Part shown: positions 10,792 through 57,412 of the stretch, piece after piece
How the letters are laid out: every line of letters starts with the position of its first letter
Numbering within the stretch: position 1 is the first letter of the stretch
Virus record (IMG/VR): IMGVR_UViG_3300031111_000236
Direction: 5' to 3' (one strand)
Source: an uncultured virus (IMG/VR IMGVR_UViG_3300031111_000236)
Taxonomy: Duplodnaviria > Heunggongvirae > Uroviricota > Caudoviricetes
DNA: 64,000 nt
The notes under the pieces: model-generated
Told to the model about the DNA's origin: nothing
Seen by the model: only the letters and a program-made list of their open reading frames with translations
The model's database searches: none
Translations under genes and position numbers: made by a program

Positions 10792-13700
10792 ATGGTGAAA
10801 GGTAAGAAAAGGAAGGCAGGTAGAGGATTCCACTCTGACCCTATACGCCACGGCTTTTCATCCAGAAGTATTCGTCATAGCCATCAGTATGCTCATGACA
10901 CAGTTTTTAACGGCAAGCGTGTAAATGTTCCGAGCTTCGCTCTATCAGCGGCGGACCTTCTCGCTGTGGACCCCGACCTTCTCGAACGTGTCGAGAGGGG
11001 TGACGCTAACCTTGACGACCTCAGTCTGGAGGAGCAAGTTGCTATTGCTTCAGAACTGAAAGAGAGAATCAAGCACGGTGCTATGTCTCAAGAGGACAAA
11101 GAGCACTATATGGGTATCATCAACACGATAGTGAACCAGTACAGGTACGACGAGGATACTGGTGAACCTCTTGCCAACATATCCAGTGTGGGTATATACA
11201 CGATACCCGAGTACGGGCCTGTAACAATGTTCGACTCCAACGGTGAACCTGTGATTATCGGGACTCGTGTCCCGTATGAGACTATTTACAGGGGTCAAAA
11301 AAATACACGCTGGTCGAGAACTATAGATACGTCGTTCAATTATGAGAAGAACATAGACCTCATCATCAAGCTGGCCGAACTAAAGGAGAAGGTAAATGAG
11401 TCCAACCTTATGCGTGACTACAATAATGATACACCAGACGGTCTCGATAAGATGGACGAAACTCTTGCCAGGATACAGGCGAAACTAAGTGGTGTTAAGG
11501 GTAGGAGTGCAAGCACCGAACAGGTGATGCTGGACGATATTTCTCAGGACCTCTCCATCGACCAGAAGATGATACAGATTATCAAGGAAGGCAAAGGTCT
11601 CGAAGAGCTTGCTGAGATATCTGGGGAGGCTATAAACGTCGAGCAGGGTATATGGATTCACGGTGGTCAGATTATGCTTGGGAGAAGTCCCAAGGAAAAG
11701 GAATCCTTAGCGAGGGGGTTGGCTCTCCACGAGATAGGTCACTCTCTCTACACTCTCGACATGGAGTTCTTGTGGACAGACAAAATGAAGCAGATGGCTA
11801 AGGCTGGCTCGAATGAGGAGCGCATAGTTAACAACATGATAAACATATCAGAGGATGCCAGACTGACACGTAATCTTATTAAGACCGCTCGCAGACCGAG
11901 AGAGATAAACAAGGACCTTATGACTGTAGCTTATAGGGTTCACAACGTTGCTGGTCAGGGGTCAATAGATACTACTATGCGGTATATCAAGAACCGTCTC
12001 GAAAAGGACAAGGGCGACGCTAAAAACTTGTACGAGGACATGAACTTTCCAATCGGTATTATGAATATCATGGCTCACTTTAACGTTCCTCTGCCAGCAG
12101 AGCAAATGCAGAGCTTGGTGATATCTACTTATTACGACGGTACGCTCTCTGACGACATGGCACAGATAGAGGCCGACCTTGCGGCAGGTCTCAACACACC
12201 TCTTGTACAGAAGTATAACGAGGCATTAGCAGATGCACAATCTACACCGTTCTGGAGGTTCTGGTGGGAACGTGACACAATCACTGATGACGATATAGAA
12301 GGTAACCCGAGACCTGATGGGTGGGTGGCCTCTGACTACATCAGGGCTATGTATCAGGCCCCCTCAACTTATGCTTCTTATGTCCCTATGGAGAGGCTAC
12401 TTCATAGACTCTTTACGACCTATGCTGTCGCCGACCAGGTAAATCCTGAAGAGGCGAACGATACTGAGCAGGGTCAGGACCAACAGCAACAGCAAGGTCA
12501 AGAGGGTCAGAGTGGTCAGCAAGAACAACAGGGACAACAGGGACAACAGGGGCAAGGGGGTCAGCAGGGTCAGCAACAGCGGGGAGGTGATACTGGTGAG
12601 GGCGAAGGAGAAGGTAGTGGTGGGACTGGTCAGAGCCAAGAAGGAGAAGGCCCCGAGGGGGAGCAAAGAGAGGGAGAGGGCGGCGGAGATGGTCAAGACG
12701 GTCAGAAACAGGAAGGCTCTCAGAAGGGTGGTGGAGGCGAACAGGGAGAACAAGGCGAAGAGAGCGGTGAGAGTGGGGGCGGTGATAGTAGTGAAAGTGG
12801 AGAGGATGCTGATGGTCAAGAGGGTCAAGGTGGTGGAGACGGTAAAAAGGGTGACGGCGATAAGCAGGGTCAAGGTCAGGGTGGTCAGGGAGCTGGTGAC
12901 GACGGTCAACCTCTTAGCAACAGCACCATAGACCCGAACGCAGACCTCGATTTCAGTAAGGGTAAGCGAGACCTTGACAGGGAAGCAGAACAGAATCGCC
13001 AGGAGGAAGGTGGGGGCGGTAAGTCAGATGAATCGGGCGCACCAAAAGATGGGAAGGGAAGTGGTACTCCTGTCCCAAGTCCGAAGGATAGAACAGCGGA
13101 TGCTGGTGACCCAATAGACGACCTTCCTATGGGTGACATGGGTCAAGATAGTGGAGGAGATACGATTGGTAACGGTGGTGGTGGTAGCATAGATAAGACT
13201 GGCATGACCAAAGATGGTGGTGACCAGGACAAGTCCAACAAACCGCTCGGACGCTCTACGAACGGGAAGGCTCCAGAAACCAAACCTATGGACGAGCAGA
13301 AGAAGAAGGATATAGAAAACATTCTTAAGGACATGGGTAATGAGATAAACAAGGCTGTCAAAAAGGATAAAGGCAATCCGCTCGACGAGATTACAGCCGC
13401 TGATGATAAGAATCCTGATGGGTCCGACATAGAGAAGCCTGATATCCCTGGCGGTTCGGGTCGTGACCGTACCGAGGAGATAGAAAACCTTATAACACAG
13501 GCCGCCAAGCAGGACAAGCTCGAAGAGGAGTTCAAACAGAGAATCCCTAAGCTCGAAGAGCTACACAGAGGGAACGGGAATAGCAACCCTGTCGATGTCA
13601 GACTAAGTTCGAAGCATAAGTCGCAAGCTCGTAAGATAAGTAAGGCTATCATCAATAAGGTCGATAAGAAGCTGGAGGACGACTTCTCAGAGCCTGTAAA

Positions 13701-14439: not shown

Positions 14440-14442
14440 ACT

Positions 14443-15723: not shown

Positions 15724-15773
15724 TACGGAATCTTTAAATACCTTGGCGTAGAATCAGTAGAGAGGAGAAAATC

Positions 15774-16166: not shown

Positions 16167-16242
16167 TCTATCTGGTCGTATTTTCTTTGTATATAAGGCT
16201 GAGTATCAACGTTTAAATACAAGTCCCTACATTGTCTATGTC

Positions 16243-17307
16243 ATGAAGAGGCAGTTCGCTCTTGGTTTCGTGTCACTCCTCGTGGTAGGACTATGCCTGG
16301 CCACGTATATCACTGCGATTGTGCCTCCACTTTCCTATGAACGCTCGTACCCTAAAGGGTATTCTACTGGTGACGGCGGACCTAACGATGTCGTGTCAAT
16401 TCGCCCACAGGTCAATGGGAATGAGGCCAACTTTACGATAACTTACGACATCTCAGAGAAGCTCGTTGTGGTCAACCAGAGTAATGTTCGCAACTTTTCG
16501 ATATATTGGGACCGTGCTATTGAGAAGGTCGCAGGAACGGACGCTCTTGACTACTATGCGGCCCTTCTATTCGATATCATGTATATCAGGGTGGAGGGCA
16601 CGCCTGGTGAGAAGAATATCACTATCTACAATGTCCCGAAGCGTGTTAAGTACGTCTCGGTTGACGGTGACTACATACCTTTCTACACAGGTCCTAATTG
16701 GGTTAAGGTCACAGGCGATAACGGATACTACAAGATTCAATTTGGGTCTTCGTCTGGTGTCTACGTTAACCCCGAGATAGACAGCGTGTCCTGGGTTCTC
16801 AAAAGTTCTTATGAGCGTACTGTTTGGATTGACCTTGACAAAGGTTGGAACCTCGTGTCACTACCTGTCTTGAATTTGACAAGTGAGGACCTCTTTGGTC
16901 AGTGTGAGTGTATCGGAGCGATAGCCTATCGTGGTGAGGACGGCTCTACACATCTCATTATCAGGGACTCTCAGGAGCGTGAGGAGCTTCTTCTAACGGG
17001 ACACGGTATCTACCTCTACTCTATGACTGACACGGCCTTCCCGTGGAAGGGAGACGTGATTTTCAGCGTTTCGTATACCCTGCACAAGGGGTGGAACCTC
17101 TTGATGACACCTTACGGGTACGATGAGAGCATAGTCGATGTCCTGAACAGTAATCCTCATGTAGACGCTATAGTTAGCAGGGACCCGAGTGGGCAGTACG
17201 ACTTCTACATGAGGGGCACGAGCCGTGTAGATGGTTTAATGGAGTACCCGAGCGGGTATTACGTGTACACCAAGCATGATAGCGTCCCAATGGACCTCGT
17301 GGTCTAA
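16243..17307 (+). CDS. Secreted protein with two GWNL repeats
   Basis: Signal/TM helix; KGWNLVS and KGWNLLM. Confidence 0.75.
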   Translation: MKRQFALGFVSLLVVGLCLATYITAIVPPLSYERSYPKGYSTGDGGPNDVVSIRPQVNGNEANFTITYDISEKLVVVNQSNVRNFSIYWDRAIEKVAGTDALDYYAALLFDIMYIRVEGTPGEKNITIYNVPKRVKYVSVDGDYIPFYTGPNWVKVTGDNGYYKIQFGSSSGVYVNPEIDSVSWVLKSSYERTVWIDLDKGWNLVSLPVLNLTSEDLFGQCECIGAIAYRGEDGSTHLIIRDSQEREELLLTGHGIYLYSMTDTAFPWKGDVIFSVSYTLHKGWNLLMTPYGYDESIVDVLNSNPHVDAIVSRDPSGQYDFYMRGTSRVDGLMEYPSGYYVYTKHDSVPMDLVV

Positions 17308-17369: not shown

Positions 17370-20300
17370 ATGGACAGTGAAAAGTTCCTCGTAGCCTTGT
17401 TCGTCGTTCTTGGCTTTCTTGTTAGTAGCATGATACTCCCAGACCTGGGTGATGGTGCTACTGGTCTCTCAATCGGAGAGCATCACGAGGATGAAACTGG
17501 TCTTGTTGCGCTGTGGCACTGTGAAGCGGAGACAATTCTCAACGATACTGGTCCAAACGATATGGACGGTATACTCTACAATGTTCAGTATGTGGACGGT
17601 CAATTCCGTGATGGTATCTATTTTGACGGTACGACCTCTTATGTTCAAGTCCCATACGATAGCGCACTTATTCAGACGGGTAATTTCACTTGGGAGTGGT
17701 GGATGAAACCAGACGGCACAGAAAAAATGCTATTCTATTTAGAAGATTATCTGTATGTCGAACAAGCCGACCAAGACATTAAAATAAAAATTTGGGACGG
17801 CTCTTGGAAAGAAACAAAAGGTACAGGCGTTCTCCAATATGGTGTATGGCAAAAGATTACCTTTCAGTATATCGTGAACGGTGTTGGCGACTATGAAACC
17901 TTCCTCTATCGTAACGAAGTTGAAGTAGCCAACAAACAATTCTCAAGCCCTATTCTTGGTACTTCGACCTACGACCTCTATATTGGTTGTAAATACGAAA
18001 GTGGCGATGTTGCCAAATACTTCTACACAGGTGGTCTTGACGAGATAGCCATATTCTCTGGTACAGTCGCACCTGATAGAGTAACGGACATAGTGGTCAT
18101 ACCTACCGCCTATCCCATCTACGAGAACTATACGGCCAACTTCATAGTCTATACGTTCAATCAGTTTGGGCTTGTTGACGATTATGGCGACTACATCATC
18201 TATCACGATAACGGCTCAGGGTGGGTTGAGATAGACAGTGGTGAGTACTTGACAATGGACGGCATGGCCTTCATTGACTATGTGTTCAGTGACCTCGGGG
18301 ATTACATGGTCTATGTCAATGTCCACGAGGACATCGCCGTGAACGACAGCTTCGACTTCCCTCTCATCCCAGAGGAGTACGGGGTGTGCCAGGAGACCAT
18401 TATAATCAACAACCAGACCTACATCAACAACACCTATGTCTACAACACGACCAACGTGAATCAGACCTTCAACAATTACACTACGGTCACCTACAATGAG
18501 ACCCTCTTGAATATCACCTACCAGAATCAAACGCTGGTCAACATGACCAACCTCAACCAGACCTATTACGATACTGACTATTACAACACTACCAACACCA
18601 ACATATCGTACACCAATATCACGAACACTACGACCATCTATCAGTGGGACAACGATACCTTCGTGACCAACAACTACACGATAGACAATTCTACAACTTT
18701 TATGAATTACACTATCAACAACTACACTTTCGACAACGATACCTACAACAATTTCACCTGGCTCAACAGTACGACCATCGTTACTAACATCGACAACAGT
18801 ACTACCTTCAACGACACGTACATATCGAACTATTTGAATCAGACCTGGTACAACATGAGCTATGTCAATGACACTTACCTCTCGAATACCTTCCAGAACT
18901 GGACATGGCTCAATGAGACGTTTTATAACATCACAAATGAGTATCTCACTCTGAACAATTATACGAACGTGACGAACGAGTTTTTGAATCAGACGATATA
19001 CAATATCGCCAACGACTACCTGAACGCCACTTACTACAATATGACCTGGCTCAATCAAACTTTCCTCGACCAGACGTTTTTAAATCAGTCCTGGGTGAAC
19101 AACACCTACAATGATAACGATTACATCAACATCACCAACGTGGTAAATGACTACATCAACCAGACCTTCCTGAACCAGAGCTGGATAAACCAGAGCTTCT
19201 ACGATAGCCATGACAACTACACGTGGCTCAGCTACAATTACACGTACTTCAATACTACGACCTTGCAGACGTTCAATAACTGGCTGAACCAGACGTTCTA
19301 TAACGTAACGAACGACTATCTCAACGAGACCTACTACAATGACTATTTCATCACGAACACGTTCTTGAATCAGTCATGGGTGACTAACAATTTCCTGAAT
19401 CAGACCTTCCTGAATCAGACCTTCAACTACTTCAATATCACGTACCTGAACCAGACGTTCAATTATTACTATTACAACGTGACATACCTCAACGACACGT
19501 ATGTAAATGTAACCAACCTGACGCAGGTATTTAACAACCAGACATACATAAATAATACCTGTGTAACTAATCAATATGTCAATTATACAACTGTCAATAT
19601 TCAGTACAACAACGTGACCTGGGTAAACCATACCTACGTCACGAATCAGTTTATGAACGTCACCTATCAGAACGTAACATACGTTAACAATACCTATGTG
19701 ACTTATCAAAATGCAACCTACGTCAACTACACCAACACCACTAATAATTTCTACGATATTACCTACCTGAATCAGACTATATACATCAACAACACGTACA
19801 TAAACGTAACCAACATTACGATATACCAGAATATGTACACGACCCCATCAATGAAGGGTTTCGTACACACACCTCTCTATACCTACTCTGAGGTTCCCTT
19901 CTGGACAGGGTTTGAGCTGTTCTACTCTGGTGTGAATTATGCCTACGCTAAGGTGGAGTTGATAGATACCTTCGATGACTCATTGATAGACCAGCAGTTC
20001 ATGAACATGACAGTTTTCGATAACGAAACCATGAGACTGGATTGGGAGATGATTCTCCCGAGGACATCACGGAACGCTGACCTCTACACTGTCAGGGTCA
20101 CTGTCTATAATGTCAGCAACCCGATAGAGTCCAACGTCATAGGAACATGGGAGCGTCATATTGTATCGCTCGGGCCTTTCCTGGAGTCTTTCCGTGCTGG
20201 AGGTATCGGGGACCTCGAAGGGGATGTGGTCTTCAAGATGTCTTTCAAAGAGGGGTGGAACTTAGTTACCTTACCGTTCGATGTTGACGGTACATCGATG

Positions 20301-20711
20301 CAACAGTTCATGAGTGACTTCCAGCCTGTCAGTGCGATAGCGCAGAGACTCCCCGATGGCCAGTACGAGATGTACATCGATGGTACAAGTGACGACGCAC
20401 TGATGTTCAACGGTGTCGGATACTTCGTGTACGCAGAGGAGGACTTTATCATCGATTACTACCCCGAGGAGGCCGTGCTTGACTTCACTCTGCCGCTCAA
20501 AGAGGGATGGAACATGGTAGGCGTGCCCTTCGGCTACGCTCGGTACTTGTCTGATATGCCTGTCACAGACATCTCAGCCCTCGTGGAACGAGACACCTAC
20601 GGTCACTATCACTTCTACCTTATCTGCGAGAACGACGATGTTTTCATGGCCTATGGTAGAGGGTACTACATCTACTCTGAGATAGACCAAACCATCACGA
20701 TATCATACTGA
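17370..20711 (+). CDS. Large surface glycoprotein: LamG/concanavalin-like domain, Asn/Thr-rich stalk, two GWNL repeats
   Basis: GLVALWH...GIYFDGTTSYV...FTWEWWMKP...LYIG...YTGGLDEIAIF; long NxT-rich region; EGWNLVT, EGWNMVG. Confidence 0.85.
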   Translation: MDSEKFLVALFVVLGFLVSSMILPDLGDGATGLSIGEHHEDETGLVALWHCEAETILNDTGPNDMDGILYNVQYVDGQFRDGIYFDGTTSYVQVPYDSALIQTGNFTWEWWMKPDGTEKMLFYLEDYLYVEQADQDIKIKIWDGSWKETKGTGVLQYGVWQKITFQYIVNGVGDYETFLYRNEVEVANKQFSSPILGTSTYDLYIGCKYESGDVAKYFYTGGLDEIAIFSGTVAPDRVTDIVVIPTAYPIYENYTANFIVYTFNQFGLVDDYGDYIIYHDNGSGWVEIDSGEYLTMDGMAFIDYVFSDLGDYMVYVNVHEDIAVNDSFDFPLIPEEYGVCQETIIINNQTYINNTYVYNTTNVNQTFNNYTTVTYNETLLNITYQNQTLVNMTNLNQTYYDTDYYNTTNTNISYTNITNTTTIYQWDNDTFVTNNYTIDNSTTFMNYTINNYTFDNDTYNNFTWLNSTTIVTNIDNSTTFNDTYISNYLNQTWYNMSYVNDTYLSNTFQNWTWLNETFYNITNEYLTLNNYTNVTNEFLNQTIYNIANDYLNATYYNMTWLNQTFLDQTFLNQSWVNNTYNDNDYINITNVVNDYINQTFLNQSWINQSFYDSHDNYTWLSYNYTYFNTTTLQTFNNWLNQTFYNVTNDYLNETYYNDYFITNTFLNQSWVTNNFLNQTFLNQTFNYFNITYLNQTFNYYYYNVTYLNDTYVNVTNLTQVFNNQTYINNTCVTNQYVNYTTVNIQYNNVTWVNHTYVTNQFMNVTYQNVTYVNNTYVTYQNATYVNYTNTTNNFYDITYLNQTIYINNTYINVTNITIYQNMYTTPSMKGFVHTPLYTYSEVPFWTGFELFYSGVNYAYAKVELIDTFDDSLIDQQFMNMTVFDNETMRLDWEMILPRTSRNADLYTVRVTVYNVSNPIESNVIGTWERHIVSLGPFLESFRAGGIGDLEGDVVFKMSFKEGWNLVTLPFDVDGTSMQQFMSDFQPVSAIAQRLPDGQYEMYIDGTSDDALMFNGVGYFVYAEEDFIIDYYPEEAVLDFTLPLKEGWNMVGVPFGYARYLSDMPVTDISALVERDTYGHYHFYLICENDDVFMAYGRGYYIYSEIDQTITISY

Positions 20712-29422: not shown

Positions 29423-31547
29423 TGTGCTCGTGCTGTTATTAGCAATGCTAATACCTCTTGAATCAGAGGCCGCTGTGGTTCAGGCAGATAATGTCATAGT
29501 CGTTGACGGCGTGAGTGTTATAAGCGACAGCGGTGAGAAGTATGACTATCTCGGGCGTGTCGATGATACTAATCCCAAGGGTCTTTACGACGGTATCATA
29601 TATAACGCCTACGACGAGCTTTACTTCAAGCAATCTGGTGGCCCAATCACTATAACATCTGGTGTCAGGTTCAGGAACATCGCTGATGGTCTCGGTTTTA
29701 ACGATACGGTTGGTAGTACCATAACTGGTATAGACTTGGAGATTTTCGCAACAATGGATGCCCCCGTCGTATTTGAGAACGTTAACCTGGGATGCGGTCC
29801 CATCACTGTGAACGCTGGTAAGCTCAGGATAGTGAACAGTACTGTTTATGCACAGGGCGGTAATATCGGTACGGGTTCTTTCTGGGCTGGTATAGTAACG
29901 GCTACCGAGGCGGCGGAATCTGTAATAGAGATTGTGAACTCCACGGTGTACACTGAGACTGGTATATACACTGGCCCTAACTCACGTCTCTATCTCAATA
30001 ACAGCCACATTATCCAGGTAGATGTACCTTCGAGTCTTGAGAATAACTTTTACTGGCATCAAGTTGGCACTTACGATATGACCGAAGGTAACGATAATTC
30101 GCTTATCTATATTGACCACACCAACTTCACAGTGGATGATAATTGGGATGCGGAAGTGCGAAATGTATGGGCTGATGGTGTGGATGAAATCTACATTTAT
30201 GATTGTACTTTCCACGGTGGTGTTAAGACTGGTGTGGAGGTAGAGTCGAGCAGGATTTTCCGTGTCGATGGGTGCTCCTTCGAGCAGTATTGGGGTACTT
30301 GCATCGAGGTGGCTTACCTACAAGAGGACGATAACAGCGTGTCCAACTGCTATATAGGTAACCCTGCTGGTGATGAGTATGTCAGCACCGAGGATACCCA
30401 AATGGGTATAGGCGAGTTCAGCGAATACGAGGGCGAGAACTTACCAGGTAGCGTGATTCATATATTCAACAACACCATAGAGGGATTCGAAGTCGGTGTG
30501 TTCCTGAAGTCGATGAATGGCATCATATACAATAATACAATATCCGACATAAGGTACAAGGATATGATACCCCCGAGGCTCTTCGGTGGTATAGCCATAG
30601 GGTTCGGATATTACGACTTGACCGTGCCACAAAATGTGCTACAAGCGGCTTGTTATGTTCATCATAATCTTATCATGGACAGTTCTATTGGTATTGCCGC
30701 AATGAATAACGGTGAAATTCACTATAACGCTTTCGTCAACGTTGACAGCAAGGTGGTGGCCTCTCCGACACCTTTCAGAACTTACGACGGGTTCAAGGTA
30801 GACGCATCGATGAACTATCTTGAAACTAACTATCCTACATATCTTGCGGCCACGAGCATCGACCTTGAGAGTTACATAGATGTGATGGTCGGTGAGATGG
30901 TAGCCGACTTCTTGTACTTCGAAGAGGGAATCACCGTAGTCAGCGAGCCTTTCGCTGTCACCAAGACCATAGGTTCCGAGTGGGATATACCTATCAGGAC
31001 TGGATGGAATCTTGTCTACGTACCTTACAATCTGGACAACAATGAAACTGTCGCCGAGATACTTGATAAAAGCTCTTCCATAAGTGCTATGGCCGTCAGA
31101 AGTCTTTCAGGGGAGTACGTCTTCTACATCAAAGACTTCCAGACAGAAAGTCACGACTTCGTTCCAACTACACCAGGCGGTTTCTACGTTTACTCCAATA
31201 ACAACATAGACCTCACTCTGAACGTTGTATCGATGAGCGGGTCCTACGTCTACCAGCAAGGGTGGAACGTCTATGGGTCTATAGTATCGGGCTACAAGCT
31301 CTCTTCCTACGTCGAGATGAACGAAATAGAGAGTATCGCTTACAGGGGTACTGATGGTAACTACAATATTATGATACCACATACTCCTCTAAGAGATAGC
31401 GAGATAGAGGAGCTTGACAATATACCGACCTATTCTGGTATCTATATGTACTCTTCTATAGAGCGCATTATACCTCTTGAGACTGCGATATATGACAAGG
31501 AAAGCGGTATATTCGTGACACCAGAGGGGATTGACCAATGGTCGTAG
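29394..31547 (+). CDS. Secreted parallel beta-helix protein with two GWNL repeats
   Basis: Signal peptide; IYDCTF/VDGCSF/IFNNTI/IYNNTI repeats; TGWNLVY, QGWNVYG. Confidence 0.8.
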   Translation: MNRNQLLASSVLVLLLAMLIPLESEAAVVQADNVIVVDGVSVISDSGEKYDYLGRVDDTNPKGLYDGIIYNAYDELYFKQSGGPITITSGVRFRNIADGLGFNDTVGSTITGIDLEIFATMDAPVVFENVNLGCGPITVNAGKLRIVNSTVYAQGGNIGTGSFWAGIVTATEAAESVIEIVNSTVYTETGIYTGPNSRLYLNNSHIIQVDVPSSLENNFYWHQVGTYDMTEGNDNSLIYIDHTNFTVDDNWDAEVRNVWADGVDEIYIYDCTFHGGVKTGVEVESSRIFRVDGCSFEQYWGTCIEVAYLQEDDNSVSNCYIGNPAGDEYVSTEDTQMGIGEFSEYEGENLPGSVIHIFNNTIEGFEVGVFLKSMNGIIYNNTISDIRYKDMIPPRLFGGIAIGFGYYDLTVPQNVLQAACYVHHNLIMDSSIGIAAMNNGEIHYNAFVNVDSKVVASPTPFRTYDGFKVDASMNYLETNYPTYLAATSIDLESYIDVMVGEMVADFLYFEEGITVVSEPFAVTKTIGSEWDIPIRTGWNLVYVPYNLDNNETVAEILDKSSSISAMAVRSLSGEYVFYIKDFQTESHDFVPTTPGGFYVYSNNNIDLTLNVVSMSGSYVYQQGWNVYGSIVSGYKLSSYVEMNEIESIAYRGTDGNYNIMIPHTPLRDSEIEELDNIPTYSGIYMYSSIERIIPLETAIYDKESGIFVTPEGIDQWS

Positions 31548-31993
31548 AGGGCTGTCGCACACTGTACTCCACAGACCGCATAATACTTCAGATACTCGCA
31601 ATAGTTTACGGTGCGGTAATAGGTCTGACTTTCGTTATTACATCAGAACTTGTAATATCACTCTTCTTGCCAACGTTCATAATGATAGTGGTAGTAGCAC
31701 CTGTTGTAGAAGAGTTTTTCAAGACTATCATAGTTAAGGCCGCTTCCTGTGAGCGTAGTCTTGCTCCGAGACTTGTAGCCCTATCAGCACTGTCCTTCGG
31801 TATGGTAGAGCTGTTCGTGCACTCGGTGTTCCTGGGCGGGTATGTGCTCTCTATCACATTTATCATGCACGTTGTCTTTTCTCTACCCGCTGGTTACGCC
31901 TATGCCAAGAGCAAAAAGCTCTATCCTCTTGGACTCATGGTATCCATCATTCTTCACGCACTGTGGAACTTGATGGTTATAACCCTCTTCTGA
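31538..31993 (+). CDS. PrsW-family intramembrane glutamic protease
   Basis: APVVEEFFK, FGMVE, MH and LHALWN motifs in TM helices. Confidence 0.75.
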   Translation: MVVEGCRTLYSTDRIILQILAIVYGAVIGLTFVITSELVISLFLPTFIMIVVVAPVVEEFFKTIIVKAASCERSLAPRLVALSALSFGMVELFVHSVFLGGYVLSITFIMHVVFSLPAGYAYAKSKKLYPLGLMVSIILHALWNLMVITLF

Positions 31994-34398: not shown

Positions 34399-35421
34399 AT
34401 GATGGCTAAAGCTGAGCTGAAAATCCCTGTAAGAGAGGGACCCGAACACCCGCTGGTCCCAAAAAAGGCGCACCCGTATATAGCACGGTTAGTGCTTGAA
34501 GAAAAATACGACCTCGACCTCATGAATTACGCATGGTTGAGAGGTAGAAAGCCCACCCTCTTGATAGGCCCTACTGGTGTGGGTAAGACCTCGTTACCGA
34601 GACGCATAGCCTACTCTACAAAGAGGCCCTACATGAGAGTCAATTTTGCCGAGGGTATCGAGCAGGAGAACCTCCTGGGGCATATCGAGATAAATGAAAA
34701 CGGTGAGACCGTGTGGGTGGATGGCGTATTGACCAAGGCGGTCAGAGACGGTTATATCTTCGTCGCTGATGAGGTCAACGCTATGGACCCCGATATCGCC
34801 TTCAATCTACATCCTCTCCTGGATGATGACAGATTCCTCCTCTTGACGATGAAAGACCCCGAAGGTGACGACACCAGCATCAGGGTTGAGGCTCACCCCG
34901 ATTTCTGGTTCGTAGGGACCATGAACAGAGGTATCGAGTACACTGGTACAAAAGAACTCAATGCCGCCTTCATGAGGAGATTCCCCGTGAAGATTATCAT
35001 GACATATCCTAAGCCCGAGGTCGAGCGCAAGATTATAATGCTTCGTGTAGAGGGTATAAACGACATAGTTGTCACGAATATAGTCGAGGTCGCTAACAAG
35101 GCCAGATTGAAGTTCAACGAGAAGCATATCCCAATCAGTACTGGCGACCTTATAGAGGTGGCCGAGATGTCAATGAACGGGTTCACGGTGCTCGAAGCGT
35201 TTGAGACAGTTATAGTGCCCATCTTCGAGAACAAGAACGATGTGGTGGCCTTCCGCACAACCGCTCAGAAGTACATTGGTAAGAACGATGTGGGTACTCT
35301 CAGACCGAATGACAAGCGACCTGACGTGCCATCTCCTCCCGCTGTGAACACATTCGACCCTGACAAGGCTTACGAGGCTGAGAGCGTGGTCAAGAGGGTC
35401 TACGACCAGAGGGAACGATGA
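34399..35421 (+). CDS. MoxR/CobS-like AAA+ ATPase (no leader)
   Basis: GPTGVGKT, VADEVN, GTMN, FMRRF. Confidence 0.9.
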   Translation: MMAKAELKIPVREGPEHPLVPKKAHPYIARLVLEEKYDLDLMNYAWLRGRKPTLLIGPTGVGKTSLPRRIAYSTKRPYMRVNFAEGIEQENLLGHIEINENGETVWVDGVLTKAVRDGYIFVADEVNAMDPDIAFNLHPLLDDDRFLLLTMKDPEGDDTSIRVEAHPDFWFVGTMNRGIEYTGTKELNAAFMRRFPVKIIMTYPKPEVERKIIMLRVEGINDIVVTNIVEVANKARLKFNEKHIPISTGDLIEVAEMSMNGFTVLEAFETVIVPIFENKNDVVAFRTTAQKYIGKNDVGTLRPNDKRPDVPSPPAVNTFDPDKAYEAESVVKRVYDQRER

Positions 35422-50805: not shown

Positions 50806-50891
50806 GCACGGGTGGCTGAGTCAGGCTAAAGCGTTCGCCTTGAGAGCGTTTGACCCTCTTGGGTTTGCAGGTTCGAATCCTGTCCCGTGCG
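50806..50891 (+). tRNA. tRNA-Ser(TGA)
   Basis: GCACGGG/CCCGTGC acceptor, long variable arm, G73; outer anticodon stem mismatched. Confidence 0.8.
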
Positions 50892-50920
50892 CCTTTCCTT
50901 CTTACATACTATCATAGAGC

Positions 50921-51008
50921 GCAGGGGTGGTCGAGAGGTCGAAGACGGGGGATTCAAAATCCTCTACCATAGGTCCCGTCCCAGGTTCGAGTCCTGGTCC
51001 CTGCACCA
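50921..51008 (+). tRNA. tRNA-Leu(CAA)
   Basis: GGGGA-TTCAAAA-TCCTC; long variable region; encoded CCA. Confidence 0.9.
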
Positions 51009-51009
51009 C

Positions 51010-51092
51010 GGCAGAGTGTCCGAGCGGCGAAGGAGGGCGGCTTAAAACCGCCTACATAGGCCACGTCAGGGGTTCGAGTCCCCTCTCTGCCT
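51010..51092 (+). tRNA. tRNA-Leu(TAA)
   Basis: GGCGG-CTTAAAA-CCGCC; long variable region. Confidence 0.85.
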
Positions 51093-51103
51093 TCACAAGC
51101 AAC

Positions 51104-51190
51104 GGGGGAGTAGCCAAGTGGTCGAAGGCGGTGCGCTCAGAACGCACTACATAGGCAACGTCACAGGTTCAAATCCTGTCTCCCCTACCA
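51104..51190 (+). tRNA. tRNA-Leu(CAG)
   Basis: GTGCG-CTCAGAA-CGCAC; encoded CCA. Confidence 0.9.
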
Positions 51191-51196
51191 TTTCAT

Positions 51197-51285
51197 GGAG
51201 AGGTAGCCGAGCCTGGTCGAAGGCGGCAGGTCGAGGACCTGCTACATAGGCAACATCGGGGGTTCAAATCCCCCCCTCTCTACCA
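51197..51285 (+). tRNA. tRNA-Leu(GAG), C33
   Basis: GCAGG-TCGAGGA-CCTGC; encoded CCA. Confidence 0.85.
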
Positions 51286-51288
51286 TTT

Positions 51289-51370
51289 GCCAGGATGACC
51301 GAGCGGTAAGGTGGCGGTTTGCTAAGCCGTAGGGCCAGTGGCCCCGCAGGTTCAAATCCTGCTCCTGGCG
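51289..51370 (+). tRNA. tRNA-Ser(GCT)
   Basis: GCGGT-TTGCTAA-GCCGT; variable arm GGGCC/GGCCC; G73. Confidence 0.9.
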
Positions 51371-51510
51371 TTATCTTTTTATATTTCGTACTCCATCGCC
51401 TATCATGGTCAAAAGTATCTATCATTACAAGTCGTCCCGTGGTTGTAGTACTCGGTTCTAACGAGTACGGGCGGCTCAATTATGCCGCCACAACCAGAGG
51501 TGACAAGCGG

Positions 51511-51903: not shown

Positions 51904-53355
51904 ATGAGCTACCGATATGAGACCAGAGTTGGGGTAGTCCAGAGCGATGTGACTACACATTTCCTACTCTCTCGTATGTGCCTTGGTGCTACCCGAGTGT
52001 TCAACTCTGCCTTATGGTACTCAAGACAGCAGTGGGAACAGGTGGGTAAGATTCCGACAGGCTACGACCTTGAGAAGGTGGTGAAAGACCTTTACTGGCA
52101 CAAGCAGATACCTGCCTCTGTATCTTGCTACACGGCGCAGGAGGTGGGTCGCTCTTACAAATCGTGGTTCGCACTCAAGAAGAAAGACCCGAAGGCAATG
52201 CCACCCATGTTCAGGAGGAAGGACTGCCTGTCGCCAATGACATACAGGCCAGGTACGTACAGTATCACAAGTGTGGACCCTCTGCACTCGAAAATAGACC
52301 TTGCACTTGGTCAAAAGTTTAAGTCTGACATCGGTTACCCGTACAAGAGATTGAGTGCGGATATAAGGTGGAACTCTCCATTACCAGAGGGGGACTACAC
52401 AATCGCCCTCTTGGAGGTTGTTCCGTCCGATAGGGATGTCTCACAGAATGACCACTTTGAAATTCATATTAAGGTTAAGTTAGAGGAGCGATGGCGTGAG
52501 GAGGGTCAGGTTATGTTCATAGACCTTGGTGTTGTCAATCCCATTGTCTCGATGACAGAGGCAGGGCGTGTAGACATTTTCAAGGGCGGCTCTATTTTGA
52601 GCAATATTAGATATTGGAACAGGGTGTTATCGCACTTGTCCGAGCGTGTTATGAAAGAGTCTAACAAAAAATACTCAAAGAAGATTAAGTGGGCCTACAA
52701 AAAGAGAAACGCTCAGATTAACCAGAAACTACATTCATTAGTAAATACTTTTGTTGAAGTATGCAAAGACGAAAACGTTAAGGAGGTGGTAGTTGGAGAC
52801 TTCAAAGGTATGAAGAAACAAGCAAGTGAGACGTGGAGACGTAACCCAAGCGAAAAAGACAAGTCCAGAATGAAGACAGAAGATAGTCCTGGCAGTAGTA
52901 AGGAGATGCAGAAGGTTATGCAATTTCCAGTACAGCGGATGGTCTCAATTCTGGAATACAAACTGGCAAGGGAAGGTATTCGATTAGTAACACAGGACGA
53001 GAGCGGTACGTCTACAGGCCGTTGCTTCGTCTGTGGTCATCGGTACACTACTGATAAGGCACGTGTGAAGCGAGGTCTTTTCAAGTGCGAGCACTGTAGG
53101 AACCTGGTCAATGCCGACATTAATGGTGTTGGCAATCAGCGTGCTCGTTACCTCGGTCTCGAAAGTACTAATGGCGTGCTTGATGAGGGTCTCTCAGTAT
53201 GGGAGTCGAACGTATGGCGTTGGTGTGATGAGAACAGATGGAAACTTGCTCACGTTGCGAGAGGCCATGTGACATTCAAAACCCCTGTAGGCTCTCGACA
53301 TATAAACTTTCCTAATAACCAGCAAGGTATCTCTGTCAAGGGTAACAACCCTTGA
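51904..53355 (+). CDS. tnpB: TnpB-family RNA-guided endonuclease (IS200/IS605-related), no adjacent transposase
   Basis: RVFNSAL helix, RuvC-I FIDLG, RuvC-II VVGDF, Zn finger CFVC...CEHC, RuvC-III NADING. Confidence 0.85.
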   Translation: MSYRYETRVGVVQSDVTTHFLLSRMCLGATRVFNSALWYSRQQWEQVGKIPTGYDLEKVVKDLYWHKQIPASVSCYTAQEVGRSYKSWFALKKKDPKAMPPMFRRKDCLSPMTYRPGTYSITSVDPLHSKIDLALGQKFKSDIGYPYKRLSADIRWNSPLPEGDYTIALLEVVPSDRDVSQNDHFEIHIKVKLEERWREEGQVMFIDLGVVNPIVSMTEAGRVDIFKGGSILSNIRYWNRVLSHLSERVMKESNKKYSKKIKWAYKKRNAQINQKLHSLVNTFVEVCKDENVKEVVVGDFKGMKKQASETWRRNPSEKDKSRMKTEDSPGSSKEMQKVMQFPVQRMVSILEYKLAREGIRLVTQDESGTSTGRCFVCGHRYTTDKARVKRGLFKCEHCRNLVNADINGVGNQRARYLGLESTNGVLDEGLSVWESNVWRWCDENRWKLAHVARGHVTFKTPVGSRHINFPNNQQGISVKGNNP

Positions 53356-53944: not shown

Positions 53945-53993
53945 ACACGTAAACTTTTTATAGTACCGTGCCGATAGTCCTGTGGTTACTAAC

Positions 53994-54071
53994 ATGAACG
54001 TAATCCCAACCTTCACGGAAAGAGTCGATAGGTGGCAGGAGCGACCCTGCCGCCATCCGCAAGTACTCTAA
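53994..54071 (+). promoter_or_regulatory. Leader ORF MNVIPTFTERVDRWQERPCRHPQVL upstream of tRNA cluster 2
   Basis: 16 consecutive codons cover exactly the nine amino acids of cluster 2; TTTTTATA at 53955. Confidence 0.8.
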
Positions 54072-54089
54072 TTTTGAGAAGGAAGAGTT

Positions 54090-54164
54090 GGGAACATAGT
54101 GTAGCCTGGTTTATCACGGTGGTCTCCAAAACCACTTACATCGGTTCGAATCCGATTGTTCCCA
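54090..54164 (+). tRNA. tRNA-Trp(CCA), intron-less
   Basis: GTGGT-CTCCAAA-ACCAC. Confidence 0.9.
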
Positions 54165-54207
54165 CTCTATTTTCTCGAAATTTTTGTACCACGAGAAGCA
54201 ACAGAGT

Positions 54208-54281
54208 GGGCCTGTAGGGTAGCTTGGATATCCTGTTGGACTCCTAATCCATTGACAGCGGTTCAAATCCGCTCAGGTCCG
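54208..54281 (+). tRNA. tRNA-Arg(CCT)
   Basis: TTGGA-CTCCTAA-TCCAT. Confidence 0.9.
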
Positions 54282-54294
54282 TTACCAAGAGCAA

Positions 54295-54368
54295 GCTCCC
54301 GTAGTGTAATGGGAAAATCATCCTTGCCTTTCAAGCAAGGGAATCGAGTTCGAATCTCGGCGGGAGTA
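54295..54368 (+). tRNA. tRNA-Glu(TTC)
   Basis: CTTGC-CTTTCAA-GCAAG. Confidence 0.9.
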
Positions 54369-54369
54369 T

Positions 54370-54447
54370 GGGCGTGTATCCGAGCCTGGACAAGGTGCGG
54401 GTCTTCTAAACCCGTTTGCAGGGGTTCAAATCCCCTCACGCCCACCA
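54370..54447 (+). tRNA. tRNA-Arg(TCT)
   Basis: CGGGT-CTTCTAA-ACCCG; encoded CCA. Confidence 0.9.
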
Positions 54448-54458
54448 TCAGCAAGCAT

Positions 54459-54532
54459 GGGCGCATAGTCTAACCTGGATAGGACACCTGGCTACGGACC
54501 AGGCAATGGGAGTTCGAATCTCTCTGCGCTCA
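54459..54532 (+). tRNA. tRNA-Arg(ACG)
   Basis: CCTGG-CTACGGA-CCAGG. Confidence 0.9.
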
Positions 54533-54549
54533 CTAAACATAAGCAAAAT

Positions 54550-54787
54550 GTGGCGGTAGCCGTCGAACGTACCTCTGGTTCCTGACGAGGAACCAAGTCG
54601 GGCACAACAAGTAGGCGGAGCGATTAACCTCAAGTCCGAAGTATCTGGGCTGAAACAATGTGGTTGAAGTCCACCCCATGTATCTCGGTGGGTAGGTCAT
54701 GTGCATGACGATGTGCAGTGACCGATACAATCCAGGTATGAGGTCTCCGAGGGAGAAATAAAGTGGGTTAAATTCCCACCCGCCGCA
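54550..54787 (+). ncRNA. About 240-nt RNA with tRNA-like acceptor stem and T arm
   Basis: GTGGCGG/CCGCCGC-A acceptor; T arm GTGGG-TTAAATT-CCCAC; internal hairpins; sits in a tRNA slot of the array. Confidence 0.6.
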
Positions 54788-54791
54788 CTAT

Positions 54792-54866
54792 GGGGACGTG
54801 GTGTAGCTTGGACCAGCACCCCTGGTTTGGGACCAGGAAACCACAGTTCGAATCTGTGCGTCCCCA
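54792..54866 (+). tRNA. tRNA-Pro(TGG)
   Basis: CCTGG-TTTGGGA-CCAGG; G1:C72. Confidence 0.9.
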
Positions 54867-54890
54867 TTACCCCTCTTGGGGGTGAGTGAG

Positions 54891-55193
54891 ATGAGCAAGC
54901 AAAAACAAACGTCAGACGCAAACAAGGCAATCAAGAACACAGCGAAGGTTCACCTTGACATCAACCACGGTAGGCTTGATGCTGAAGTGGTAATCAACGG
55001 TGTTGGCGTTAAGTTCCTCCGTGAGATGGACGCAGACGCAGAGGTGAAGATGAACAAGGTGGTCGAGAGCTTGATGACTCTCGTCCCTACCCCGTCGTAC
55101 CCGACACCTGATGAGCCTGAAGTTTGGCGTGACCAAGAATCTACTAATGATACCGTGACCCCCACGGTATCTCCTATGGCGGGAGTGGTGTAG
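54891..55193 (+). CDS. Small hypothetical protein within tRNA array
   Basis: GGTGA SD; 3' end overlaps tRNA-His. Confidence 0.5.
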   Translation: MSKQKQTSDANKAIKNTAKVHLDINHGRLDAEVVINGVGVKFLREMDADAEVKMNKVVESLMTLVPTPSYPTPDEPEVWRDQESTNDTVTPTVSPMAGVV

Positions 55194-55250
55194 TCGGTAG
55201 CATCGGAGGTTGTGGGCCTCCAGGGTTGGGTTCGAGTCCCGACTCCCGCC
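55178..55250 (+). tRNA. tRNA-His(GTG) with encoded G-1
   Basis: GGAGG-TTGTGGG-CCTCC; G-1:C73. Confidence 0.9.
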
Positions 55251-55264
55251 CTCTTGAAACCACT

Positions 55265-55349
55265 GATAGGGTGGCCGAGCCAGGTAAGGCGATAGGTTGC
55301 AGACCTGTTGTCTTAGACATCGGGAGTTCAAATCTCCCCCCTATCTCCA
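55265..55349 (+). tRNA. tRNA-Cys(GCA) with long variable arm
   Basis: ATAGG-TTGCAGA-CCTGT; TGTC-TTA-GACA arm; U73 and CCA. Confidence 0.85.
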
Positions 55350-55476
55350 CTCGCACTCGCAACAGACACATGATTTCCAGTGGAAGTCGAGACCACACAC
55401 TGTTGCCACTGGAAACATAGCCAGTCAATTTACAGTGGCAGTGGTGTCACCACACTGTTTCCACTGTAGCAAGCAT

Positions 55477-55552
55477 GGGGCAGTAGTCAAGCCAGGTTAT
55501 TGACAACACCCTTACAAGGTGTAGGTCGGCGGTTCGAATCCGTCCTGCCCTA
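55477..55552 (+). tRNA. tRNA-Val(TAC)
   Basis: ACACC-CTTACAA-GGTGT. Confidence 0.9.
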
Positions 55553-55567
55553 TTTCCCATACGCATT

Positions 55568-55640
55568 GGCCCCTTGGTGTAAGTGGACAACATATCGGGC
55601 TTTGGACCCGATGCTCTTGGTTCGAATCCAAGAGGGGCTA
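55568..55640 (+). tRNA. tRNA-Gln(TTG)
   Basis: TCGGG-CTTTGGA-CCCGA. Confidence 0.9.
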
Positions 55641-55642
55641 CT

Positions 55643-55831
55643 ATGAAGTGCCAGTTCGTTGGCGGTGTCCACGTGGACAAACATCTGCCCAACCCCGAGG
55701 ACTATGAGTGCCATGAGGAGGCTACCCATACCCTTGTGGGTAATCACAAGCAGTGGCACTTCTGTCAGAAGCACTTTGAAGAGGCCAGTGACTTCAAGGA
55801 CTCTGCAAAGCACGAAACAGCAAGCATATAG
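55643..55831 (+). CDS. Small Cys/His protein within tRNA array
   Basis: 62 aa MKCQF...ECHEEAT...FCQKH filling the spacer between the two Gln tRNAs. Confidence 0.5.
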   Translation: MKCQFVGGVHVDKHLPNPEDYECHEEATHTLVGNHKQWHFCQKHFEEASDFKDSAKHETASI

Positions 55832-55901
55832 CCCCTTGGTGTAATCAGCAACATACCAGGCTCTGGACCTGGAGAAGGCGGGGCAGAACCGTCAGGGGCT
55901 G
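55830..55901 (+). tRNA. tRNA-Gln(CTG), atypical D and T loops
   Basis: A1:U72; CCAGG-CTCTGGA-CCTGG; T loop GGCAGAA. Confidence 0.75.
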
Positions 55902-55922
55902 TTAGACAATAAGCAACAAGAC

Positions 55923-55995
55923 GCTCCCGTAGTGTAGTGGTCAACCATTTGAGGTTCTCACCCTCAAGCCTGGGGTTCGAATCCCCACGGGAGTA
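55923..55995 (+). tRNA. tRNA-Glu(CTC)
   Basis: TGAGG-TTCTCAC-CCTCA. Confidence 0.9.
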
Positions 55996-56002
55996 CTCAT
56001 AC

Positions 56003-56074
56003 GCCTCCGTAGTGTAGCGGTCATCATCTTGGTTTGTCAGGCCAGGGACTTGGGTTCAAATCCCAACGGGGGCG
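56003..56074 (+). tRNA. tRNA-Asp(GTC)
   Basis: TTGGT-TTGTCAG-GCCAG; G73; followed by T tract. Confidence 0.9.
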
Positions 56075-56118
56075 TTCTTTTTCTCAAAGTTTTTATACCT
56101 CAAGAGCTTACTCATTAT

Positions 56119-56296
56119 TGGCGAAAAAGTGGTCCCTACCGTGGATAGATAGCCTGTCAATCAGCGGTGGTGGAACATCGCAATCCCAAAGCCATCTGGG
56201 ATAGACCTCAGCGGCGGAGCGTGGTCACATCAGATACACCCGTGACCACAGAGTCCGTCGATGGGACCGCCGAGCGGTGATACGCCGCTCTCGCCA
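56119..56296 (+). ncRNA. Stand-alone structured RNA, about 180 nt
   Basis: Own TTTTATA box (56091); TGGCGA/TCGCCA closing stem; GGTCCC/GGGACC, GTGGTCAC/GTGACCAC and GAGCGG/CCGCTC helices; T tract after. Confidence 0.65.
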
Positions 56297-56368
56297 CTTT
56301 TAATATTATAAGTTTTTGGGTACACCTTATATACTTCTGGTATGATTGTCTTATATCAAGGTGGCTTT

Positions 56369-57412
56369 ATGACCAAGAAAAAGGGCTTTCGAGGCAATCC
56401 CCAGACACACAGGCTCAATGCACACGGAATACATAACGAGAGGGCTTTTGCCTCCTCTTCACCAAGCATGATAAACGTGCAAGCTCGTGCTGTCACACCC
56501 ATACAAAAGAGCCACAGTTACTCAGACAGGTCAGAACCCTCTGGTAAGGTCAACAACGGTGGCTACGTGGACGAGTACCTTGTGTTGGTCGAGAAGAAGA
56601 CGGTGGAAGAGGCTACAATCAAGCCTGGTGACGAGATAGAGATGACCTTCGCAGGGGCTCCCAATGATTTCCCGAGGCCCTGGACTCTCGTTAGTGCCAG
56701 GGACGAGTACTCTACGGTATCCTACAGCAACACCCCAACCGTAGTAGTGCGTGCGGCCAATGGCAAGGAGATGACTCTCAAGAACGCACAGGTGTATAGC
56801 CCACACAAGCCCGAGAAGTCGTTCGGGTATTGGGTCAAGCCCAAGGGCCTCCCCCCGAGATACGAAAAGTACGTGACCATCCAGGACGAGGTAACTCTCC
56901 TCGAACTCATAAAGAAAGAGGACCAAGGCGGTATCAACGAGTACATAGAGAAGATGTACGAGAGGTCTGGAATAGACAAGAAGAAATACCCGCTCAACTT
57001 CTTCAGGGTGGATGTCATTAACGGTCTCTGGTACAAGGGACTCGTGAAGCAAAAGAACAGTCGCATGGCTATCTCCAAGCATGGTGAGAAGGTTCTCAAG
57101 AGTGGGGCTTTCGGCTCTGCTCAGATGCGTGATTGGGAGAAGAACAAGGTTGTTAAGATGGACGATGAGGACATCGAGATATTCGATGCCAAAACCCAGA
57201 AAATGATACGCAAGTACATGAAGAAGGGTAACCTCTACTATATGTTCGGCTTCCTGGTCTTCGAAGATGACAAGTCTCTACGTATCGTCGGAGAGAACGA
57301 CTCTTATGATGATTACACTATCAGGATGAGAACCAAGGACTTTGATAAGGTGTACGATAGACTGGAGAACGCAGACGGTGGCGTTTACGCCACAACCGAA
57401 GGCTGGAAGTGA
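56369..57412 (+). CDS. Multi-domain hypothetical protein with RHG-type leader
   Basis: GFRGNPQTHRLNAHGIHNERAFA. Confidence 0.75.
   Translation: MTKKKGFRGNPQTHRLNAHGIHNERAFASSSPSMINVQARAVTPIQKSHSYSDRSEPSGKVNNGGYVDEYLVLVEKKTVEEATIKPGDEIEMTFAGAPNDFPRPWTLVSARDEYSTVSYSNTPTVVVRAANGKEMTLKNAQVYSPHKPEKSFGYWVKPKGLPPRYEKYVTIQDEVTLLELIKKEDQGGINEYIEKMYERSGIDKKKYPLNFFRVDVINGLWYKGLVKQKNSRMAISKHGEKVLKSGAFGSAQMRDWEKNKVVKMDDEDIEIFDAKTQKMIRKYMKKGNLYYMFGFLVFEDDKSLRIVGENDSYDDYTIRMRTKDFDKVYDRLENADGGVYATTEGWK

Follow-up and report, generated by a model that had tools for sequence, protein, structure and literature searches.

A conserved peptide at the chain ends of unrelated soluble proteins from uncultured, probably archaeal, virus-like elements is most likely an address or docking label

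Fourteen open reading frames (ORFs) in a stretch of DNA from an uncultured virus (IMG/VR record IMGVR_UViG_3300031111_000236, Caudoviricetes) begin with the same short peptide, which is followed by protein bodies that have no relation to one another. The stretch analysed, called the window throughout, measures 64 kb and forms part of a contig of 184,795 bp. The peptide, referred to as the tag, comprises ~17-20 residues of the form aromatic-x2-[DEN]-[PS]-x-R-H-[SG]-L-[AS]-[AS]-[RK]-G-[IV] between basic flanks, and recurs at the chain ends of soluble proteins in many other uncultured elements. It represents a new and widespread peptide family without a name or a match in the literature. Most likely it works as a common address or docking label for proteins, and the mechanism favoured here, with a probability of about 0.4, is the loading of soluble proteins into the virus particle by way of a docking peptide at the chain end.

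An earlier note on this DNA, made from its letters, had described a leader shared by 14 ORFs, and profile searches fully bear it out. All 14 ORF starts carry the motif G[WFY]xx[DNE][PS]xRH[GSRK][LFM]xxxG[IV] within their first 10-30 residues. A strict regular expression applied to the six frames of the window gave 13 matches, all of them on the + strand and 8-67 residues from the upstream stop, and no match elsewhere than at those ORF starts; the copy that it missed is the RHGFSSRSI variant at 10792. With a 66-sequence tag profile, hmmsearch on the six-frame translation returned exactly 14 matches scoring 22.5-45.5 bits, the runner-up reaching 5.1 bits, so that no degenerate second copy is present in an untagged or scaffold-like protein of the window. 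A ribosome-binding motif of the GGTGA/GGAGG type precedes 13 of the 14 starts by 5-10 nt, both TTG starts included (Table 1). At least five further tagged proteins (P0024, P0025, P0047, P0058 and P0074), whose sizes fit no ORF of the window, are recorded on a 184,795-bp contig. Beyond the leader the proteins are unrelated, as had been stated: in tag-masked BLASTP among the 14 bodies the best E value was 0.005, between two basic low-complexity proteins. The body types proposed at that time held in part. Pfam recognised AAA_5/MoxR in the 32090 protein (E = 5e-23) and the zincin-type HExxH motif is found in the 10792 and 33643 proteins, the VWA match in the 10792 protein being weak and below cut-off; the other 12 proteins match no Pfam family. 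The statement that no tagged protein is secreted and no secreted protein tagged is likewise supported. Hydrophobic segments (Kyte-Doolittle window) occur in none of the 14 tagged ORFs of the window vs 18 of its 43 untagged ones, and in 9 of 310 tagged vs 195 of 525 untagged ORFs over all loci; tagged membrane proteins are thus almost absent.

Table 1. Tagged genes of the window and other features discussed in the text.
Feature	Position	Strand	Leader	Tag profile score (bits)	Remarks
Tagged ORF, 1215 residues	10792..14439	+	MVKGKKRKAGRGFHSDPIRHGFSSRSI	25.0	HExxH at residue 316; weak VWA near C-terminus
Tagged ORF, 426 residues	14443..15723	+	MSRKRVGWRGETIRHGLASRGI	38.9	No family
Tagged ORF, 402 residues	22917..24125	+	LPTKTPKGWTDDRERHRMARAGI	22.5	TTG start, GGAGGTGA upstream
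Tagged ORF, 425 residues	26345..27622	+	MSKNSKGFQDNPNRHGLNSRGIPNQRSFG	36.5	Very basic (isoelectric point 9.9)
Tagged ORF, 131 residues	28416..28811	+	MSWESDSRRHKLSSSGIPNKKSFA	33.6	Sole start without ribosome-binding motif
Tagged ORF, 204 residues	28808..29422	+	MSKKAGWSGDQKRHGLSSQGI	34.3	Pro-rich linker after the leader
Tagged MoxR-type AAA+ ATPase, 512 residues	32090..33628	+	MTKRKKTGWPGDPVRHSFSSRRIQSTKSFA	37.1	AAA_5, E 5e-23
Tagged ORF, 237 residues	33643..34356	+	LFDGSSQRHGLCSRGI	24.2	TTG start; HExxH at residue 166
Tagged ORF, 155 residues	44981..45448	+	MSIKGFRDNPLRHGLSARGIPHQKSFA	39.5	Basic
Tagged ORF, 485 residues	45463..46920	+	MLKKGYQGDPLVHGLSARGIPSQKSFA	37.2	Coiled-coil-like body
Tagged ORF, 163 residues	46917..47408	+	MSKNNGFEKEPARHGLCAKGIPNQRSFG	45.5	phrog_29552
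Tagged ORF, 341 residues	47430..48455	+	MKKSNGFRNNPQRHGLSARGIPNQNRFS	44.5	Isoelectric point 10.3
Tagged ORF, 195 residues	48466..49053	+	MPWTKDSERHRLAQAGVFSQTSYA	29.9	
Tagged ORF, 347 residues	56369..57412	+	MTKKKGFRGNPQTHRLNAHGIHNERAFA	36.5	Between two tRNA arrays
Untagged membrane protein, 591 residues	24494..26269	+			Immediately precedes a tagged gene
Untagged Rce1/CPBP- or PrsW-like intramembrane protease	31538..31993	+			Within tagged block; Pfam
Untagged CobS-like AAA_5/CbbQ_C ATPase and 640-residue VWA (CobT-like) protein	34399-37340				Downstream of tagged MoxR
Three tRNA arrays	50806-51371, 54090-56075, 60885-62296	+			ARAGORN, Rfam
TnpB (OrfB_IS605 plus Cas12f-like TNB)	51904-53355				Between tRNA arrays
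RNA ligase with N-terminal HNH domain	59667-60635				Adjoins tRNA arrays; phrog_24030, E 4e-80

The tag is widely spread beyond the window. The search with a profile of the 14 leaders, which the earlier note had proposed, recovered 138 proteins at E values of 0.001 or better among 1.84 billion cluster representatives, 12 being the window's own, and the match starts in residues 1-10 in 121 of the 138. When 124 of the non-window matches were compared with Pfam, almost no body domains were recognised. The view that this is not a named family has also held: the 14 leaders match no Pfam family at E values up to 10, KGG included, the stress-protein repeat that the tag presumably resembles. Likewise, the tag profile gave only E values above 1 against PDB sequences, the tag alone gave nothing usable in the ESM Atlas, and no paper was found to carry the motif when the literature was searched by motif strings; literature searches on capsid targeting sequences in archaeal viruses and on DPANN viruses returned nothing relevant.

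At the level of genomes, a degenerate DNA pattern applied to one genome per species (185,579 species) hit 22 contigs, six of them by chance and 16, from nine bins, truly, with the true tags mostly in arrays of 2-17. Six of these bins are labelled archaeal (Woesearchaeota, Methanosarcinales twice, Thermoplasmata, 'euryarchaeote' and 'archaeon') and three bacterial. In five bins of 0.8-1.9 Mb all 73 tags are confined to one to four contigs each, which indicates that the tag is a property of mobile elements and no part of the host proteome. The bins that hold virus-like contigs with tags bear the labels WOR-3, Burkholderiales and Ectothiorhodospiraceae, and also archaeal ones (L012, L021-L032, L007 and L038); these contigs are probably mis-binned mobile elements. 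The host domain, judged solely from bin labels and the taxa of Atlas neighbours, is probably archaeal. The pattern scan of IMG/VR yielded two records with the tag. The IMG/VR record G001, of 74,350 bp, has a 144-bp terminal repeat and a CheckV completeness of 100%; it carries 25 tags, 24 on its 116 ORFs of at least 50 residues and one on an ORF outside that set, with no intermediate profile scores. A narrower DNA pattern led in metagenomes to 54 loci, at least 52 of them with tags, usually on each consecutive gene. No tblastn match was obtained in isolate phages and viruses (two queries) or in PLSDB plasmids (one query). Tag identity within elements runs from 0.43 in the window, through 0.89 in G001, to 0.94 in the WOR-3-labelled contigs, and averages 0.55 between elements.

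The place of the tag is terminal. Among 360 distinct tags from up to 76 sources, 341 are N-terminal (at most 60 residues from the upstream stop), 13 lie at the extreme C-terminus and six elsewhere, some of these last being mis-called starts or contig ends. Between the C-terminal copies and the stop codon lie only one to six basic residues. At the metagenome, genome and IMG/VR loci L076, L077, L109, L016, L096 and L048 such a C-terminal tag (...GWxxxxxRHALAxRGVRTR, stop) sometimes abuts the N-terminal tag of the next gene. A few database proteins have two to three tag copies. The earlier note had considered that the motif might be a known stand-alone nucleic-acid-binding domain found at arbitrary positions; it matches no known domain, and 354 of the 360 copies are terminal.

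Selection acts on the peptide. In the 24 regex-matched copies of G001, nine positions are invariant in amino acid and are encoded by two to five codons each, Ser by TCN as well as AGY, Leu by TTR and CTT, and Arg by AGR and CGA; the presence of both codon families under invariant residues means that the peptide, and not the DNA, is what is selected. It could be argued that the leader is an inert N-terminal stub, conserved in one expanded paralogue family or spread by gene conversion without any shared function, and the arrays of adjacent genes with near-identical leaders in the WOR-3-labelled contigs and G001 are what such a history would leave. However, the abundant synonymous variation beneath an invariant peptide points to purifying selection rather than recent conversion, the bodies are drawn from folds and families unrelated to one another (AAA_5, GNAT, nucleotidyltransferase, helix-turn-helix (HTH) and others), and MoxR orthologues of 39-48% identity still have the tag, which occurs at C-termini too. 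This explanation, largely refuted by codon use, unrelated bodies, MoxR retention and the Pfam families of the bodies, is extremely improbable. The stretch that follows the tag is distinctive as well. Over the next 25 residues proline makes up 12.6% in the window vs 4.7% in the bodies, and K+R reaches 19.7% vs 14.6% over all loci, with D/E depleted. An AlphaFold model of a tagged Tpt1-like protein, which is poor (mean predicted local distance difference test score, pLDDT, of 58), leaves residues 1-29 at pLDDT below 50 and the tag unpacked from the body; Foldseek gave no match to this model at E values of 0.001 or better. The tag looks like a free peptide on a linker-like stretch, as far as such a model can suggest.

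Where the bodies attached to the tag can be recognised, they are modifying enzymes. A Pfam match was found in 24 of 150 tagged proteins, among them eight GNAT acetyltransferases, nucleotidyltransferases, a CCA-adding/poly(A)-polymerase-HD protein, five DUF5661 proteins and an HTH protein. A recurrent 'YLYHGT' body has PDB matches that are Tpt1/KptA RNA 2'-phosphotransferases in 8 of 8 cases, seven of them at borderline E values of 0.0014-0.0078 and one at 1.5. Composite arrangements of it exist: at L090 144-1334 a GNAT acetyltransferase is fused with two Tpt1-like 'YLYHGT' domains in a single tagged protein, and at L060 1766-2557 a minimal nucleotidyltransferase is combined with one such domain. 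Orthologues retain the tag. The four closest homologues of the tagged MoxR protein (39-48% identity) all bear it, together with a K[SN]F motif after it, whereas shorter CobS-like homologues do not, and the JAB-like family is tagged in all six elements that possess it. Between the window and its nearest related contig, L093, a single body is shared, a membrane protein of 591 residues in the window and 629 in L093 (31.5% identity, E = 3e-65); six tagged genes follow it in L093, and none of the window's tagged bodies is in common. To judge from these sequence comparisons, tagged bodies turn over and the tag stays where the body stays.

In G001 the tagged genes take turns with genes for acidic membrane proteins of type I; the module at 11965-48594 contains at least seven of them, with a signal peptide, a C-terminal anchor and beta-helix, PKD, LamG or beta-propeller ectodomains. 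These membrane proteins suggest that the particle is enveloped or bears a membrane, or that there is a surface apparatus. Cohesin- and dockerin-domain proteins adjoin tag arrays at L084 5697-6446 and 8361-9479 and at L111 4012-4818, and constitute a second docking system in tag elements. LAGLIDADG inteins lie within a DnaA-like ATPase and an XPB-type helicase at L019 11624-14695, L048 15492-18080 and L050 15422-16933, contigs that also bear many NUMOD/HNH homing endonucleases. Related loci with inteins and homing endonucleases count toward a virus-like setting.

It is proposed that diverse uncultured, probably archaeal, virus-like elements would put the tag, a modular address or docking peptide at the chain end with basic flanks and a linker to the body, on many unrelated soluble proteins, which it would bring to one common destination in the particle. 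The tag could bind to the condensed genome itself, or else to some component of a matrix or shell, and the ATPases, nucleotidyltransferases, acetyltransferases and similar enzymes would ride with the genome into the next cell. Loading into a particle is favoured because of the viral setting (the terminal repeat of G001, and the 30-31 tRNA genes and RNA ligase of the window), because tagged genes stand among genes for surface and membrane proteins, because the cargo resembles takeover enzymes, and because there are precedents in the virion MoxR/VWA pair of Acidianus two-tailed virus (ATV) and in the portable capsid-targeting peptide of phage T4. The earlier proposal of a packaging or compartment-targeting signal that defines a virion core is retained in so far as a shared, selected, terminal peptide on soluble proteins exists; the capsid or core as its destination is the part that gained nothing, as no virion gene was recognised in the window or at any related locus.

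The capsid targeting sequence (CTS) of T4 resembles the tag in its logic, and it loads diverse proteins, foreign ones included (PMC9026906). As this source describes it, the CTS is a short modular N-terminal peptide that a large virus puts on soluble proteins which are unrelated and change fast (the internal proteins IPI-III and Alt), and its cargo includes host-modifying enzymes, which the tagged bodies resemble. By contrast, the CTS has ~10 residues, is removed by the prohead protease and binds the scaffolding core of an HK97-type head (PMC9026906), whereas the tag, which shows no sequence likeness to the CTS, has ~20 residues, is basic and far more conserved, is C-terminal in ~4% of cases and is found in many unrelated elements. 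No protease, scaffold or capsid gene is recognised in the window, G001 or the other loci. A propeptide of the T4 type is further complicated by the C-terminal fraction, by tandem and internal copies, by the basic flanks and by a homing endonuclease with three tags. In ATV, a large archaeal virus, the particle contains the MoxR ATPase p618 as one of its major proteins, and p618 has the VWA protein p892 as a binding partner (PMC4124505). The window has one tagged MoxR and one tagged VWA-bearing protein, a likeness stated for the AAA+ and VWA domains only, and the available part of the ATV report mentions no shared tag (PMC4124505). Two MoxR-type ATPases are in fact encoded in the element and the tag is on only one of them; an untagged CobS/CobT-like pair sets the window further apart from ATV.

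Encapsulin cargo-loading peptides offer another parallel, in that a peptide is tied to its cargo enzyme through a flexible linker, at either chain end and on several unrelated cargos, in operons where one shell gene stands beside one to few cargos. The tag is similar in being a terminal peptide on a linker, and differs in having no sequence in common with them, in that an element may have up to 25 cargos and that no HK97/encapsulin shell was detected in the window or G001. In the giant phages SPN3US and phiKZ, dozens of proteins are packaged with the genome and delivered to the host by ejection; in the portions of the accounts available these proteins are defined by protease cleavage motifs and not by one leader, and the phages are tailed and bacterial (PMC7411985, PMC5694885).

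Several findings weigh against the particle as destination. Capsid, portal, terminase, scaffold, prohead protease and encapsulin were not recognised by Pfam and PHROGs in the window, in the complete G001 or at the other loci, a search that divergent virion genes, or genes beyond 64 of 185 kb, would escape; since no virion gene was recognised, the existence of a particle is an assumption, and G001 may be an element of the plasmid type. No isolate virus among the virus records searched carries the tag, so that there is no virion proteome to consult, and no receptor candidate is conserved across elements when 835 ORFs are clustered with tags masked. Tandem and internal copies occur alongside the C-terminal ones (~4%), among them three tandem C-terminal tags on P0026, a LAGLIDADG-type endonuclease of 213 residues from the database search. 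The tag is also conserved better than any other sequence of these elements, as would be expected of a peptide with a universal target (nucleic acid or a host hub, for instance) more than of one that follows a viral shell in its fast evolution. Finally, no general cleavage site is visible. The cleavage near SFA/SFG suggested by the earlier note agrees with the S[FY][AG] motif at most 10 residues past G[IV] in seven of the 14 window leaders, and in the MoxR homologues, which keep it, and does not extend further, the motif being confined to the window lineage.

The candidates for virion genes that were taken up fared as follows. Terminase_6N was not found in two IMG/VR records, and a 445-residue protein of the window, a candidate capsid, has no homologue at all. 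A 386-residue protein of G001 was rejected as a capsid, being a beta-propeller by the ESM Atlas, and a conserved P-loop protein was rejected as a packaging ATPase, as it matches a DnaA-like PHROG. In fact, a DnaA-like replication ATPase is the only widely shared untagged family across elements; in the 835-ORF clustering no untagged family is common to the window and other elements, except, by direct comparison, for the L093 membrane-protein homologue. The intramembrane protease encoded in the tagged block was also dropped as a tag-processing enzyme: it recurs only in L110, hence in two elements, and the copies share no match.

Some of these observations bring forward a different explanation, in which the tag forms a short, basic helix bearing an aromatic residue, in the manner of an arginine-rich motif or minor-groove helix, and serves as a nucleic-acid-binding arm that tethers enzymes to DNA or RNA in the infected cell, packaging being a side effect. 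This agrees with the basic flanks, the K+R enrichment and the depletion of acidic residues after the tag, and with the few basic residues before the stop in the C-terminal copies. Tags are present on HTH proteins, nucleic acids are the substrates of many bodies (nucleotidyltransferases, a CCA-adding-like enzyme, the Tpt1-like domain), and high conservation over unrelated elements fits a universal ligand. The three-tag P0026 endonuclease is the strongest hint at a DNA-binding role, its tags lying where homing endonucleases bear DNA-binding add-ons. NUMOD3 (PF07460) is, like the tag, a short basic glycine-bounded motif found in tandem at an endonuclease end. However, it has other spacing and no profile similarity to the tag (hhalign of the tag against a four-repeat NUMOD3 protein gave a probability of 0.5%), and it is not a terminal tag on dozens of unrelated proteins; nor was any other known DNA- or RNA-binding family matched in Pfam at E values up to 10. 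A generic binding module would not be expected at the terminus in 354 of 360 cases, MoxR, VWA, GNAT and JAB-like bodies have no evident need of DNA tethering, and p618 of ATV does not bind viral DNA according to the available part of PMC4124505. On balance a nucleic-acid-binding arm acting in this way is rather unlikely. A mixed model, where the tag would bind the condensed genome and hence enter the particle, could unite it with particle loading.

The conservation of the tag over elements that share almost nothing else would equally be expected if it docked onto a host hub, such as a chaperonin, a proteasome-activating or Cdc48-type unfoldase, the sliding clamp or the ribosome, in a recruitment resembling that of a PIP-box or a degron. 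A terminal short linear motif on a flexible linker, at either chain end, is typical of hub ligands and unfoldase tags. With a hub of this kind, its clients in the host should carry the motif as well, and yet no cellular protein with the tag was seen in the five bins or in the 185,579 species genomes, where it occurs on virus-like contigs only; moreover, element-specific tag variants suggest co-evolution with a partner encoded by the element. Docking onto a host hub is consequently viewed as an unlikely explanation, more so than the nucleic-acid-binding arm. Still further down stands the possibility of an export or translocation signal, read by a membrane apparatus of the element that would move effectors outside or into a neighbour cell. 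The interleaving of tagged genes with membrane and surface proteins (beta-helix, PKD, LamG and propeller ectodomains, with signal peptide and C-terminal anchor) would suit such an apparatus, and a shared signal on fast-changing bodies parallels the effector repertoires of other secretion systems, in which a short signal is held in common and the bodies change fast. Against this, neither a secretion ATPase nor a known translocon was detected, and G001 has no ATPase other than a DnaA-like one; the hydrophobic core that follows the charged N-region in Sec, Tat and class III signal peptides is absent from the 14 window leaders; and a MoxR ATPase long kept with its tag makes an odd export substrate. 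Export is thus considered very unlikely.

For loading into a particle, the reading preferred here, the window offers a virus-like setting. Nearly all genes of the window are on one strand, and the majority of its proteins have no family in Pfam or PHROGs. The tRNA genes number 30 (ARAGORN) or 31 (Rfam), all on the + strand and covering all 20 amino acids; small untagged ORFs that overlap them (50726, 50927, 51319, 54156, 61098 and 61864, for example) are probably not genes. A radical-SAM protein is also encoded (Pfam/PHROGs), and the set formed by the tRNAs, the HNH-RNA ligase, the CobS/CobT-like pair, the radical-SAM protein and TnpB is typical of huge viruses. Three secreted acidic proteins (305-2416, 16243-17307 and 17370-20711) have similar C-terminal stretches of ~50 residues (RD..G.Y.FY ... 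G.Y.Y), which may represent a second shared module, on exported proteins. The gene at 17370-20711, which encodes a secreted protein of 1113 residues, covers a region of strongly negative GC skew (-0.24) and low G+C content (0.42), unlike the remaining window.

A more far-reaching version of particle loading, tentative and on the doubtful side, would see in these elements an unrecognised assemblage of large archaeal viruses in which one universal terminal 'postal code' on up to a fifth of the genes (25 tags in 74 kb) loads fast-changing enzymes into a membrane-bearing particle for delivery to the next host, the code being read across lineages without other detectable shared sequence. If this were true, it would represent a natural and portable cargo-loading system, with a virion cargo proteome defined from sequence alone. 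Whatever the mechanism, the tag, with its ~35-55 bits, is a sharp marker of virus-like elements that are missed by detection based on capsid and terminase genes, and it also reveals which contigs have been wrongly placed in genome bins of bacteria and archaea. Should the tag prove to be an address label, one could read from sequence which proteins an uncultured archaeal virus delivers or brings together, hundreds of dark proteins would be flagged as probable effectors of host takeover or counter-defence, and a handle of 20 residues would be at hand to load foreign proteins into archaeal virus particles.

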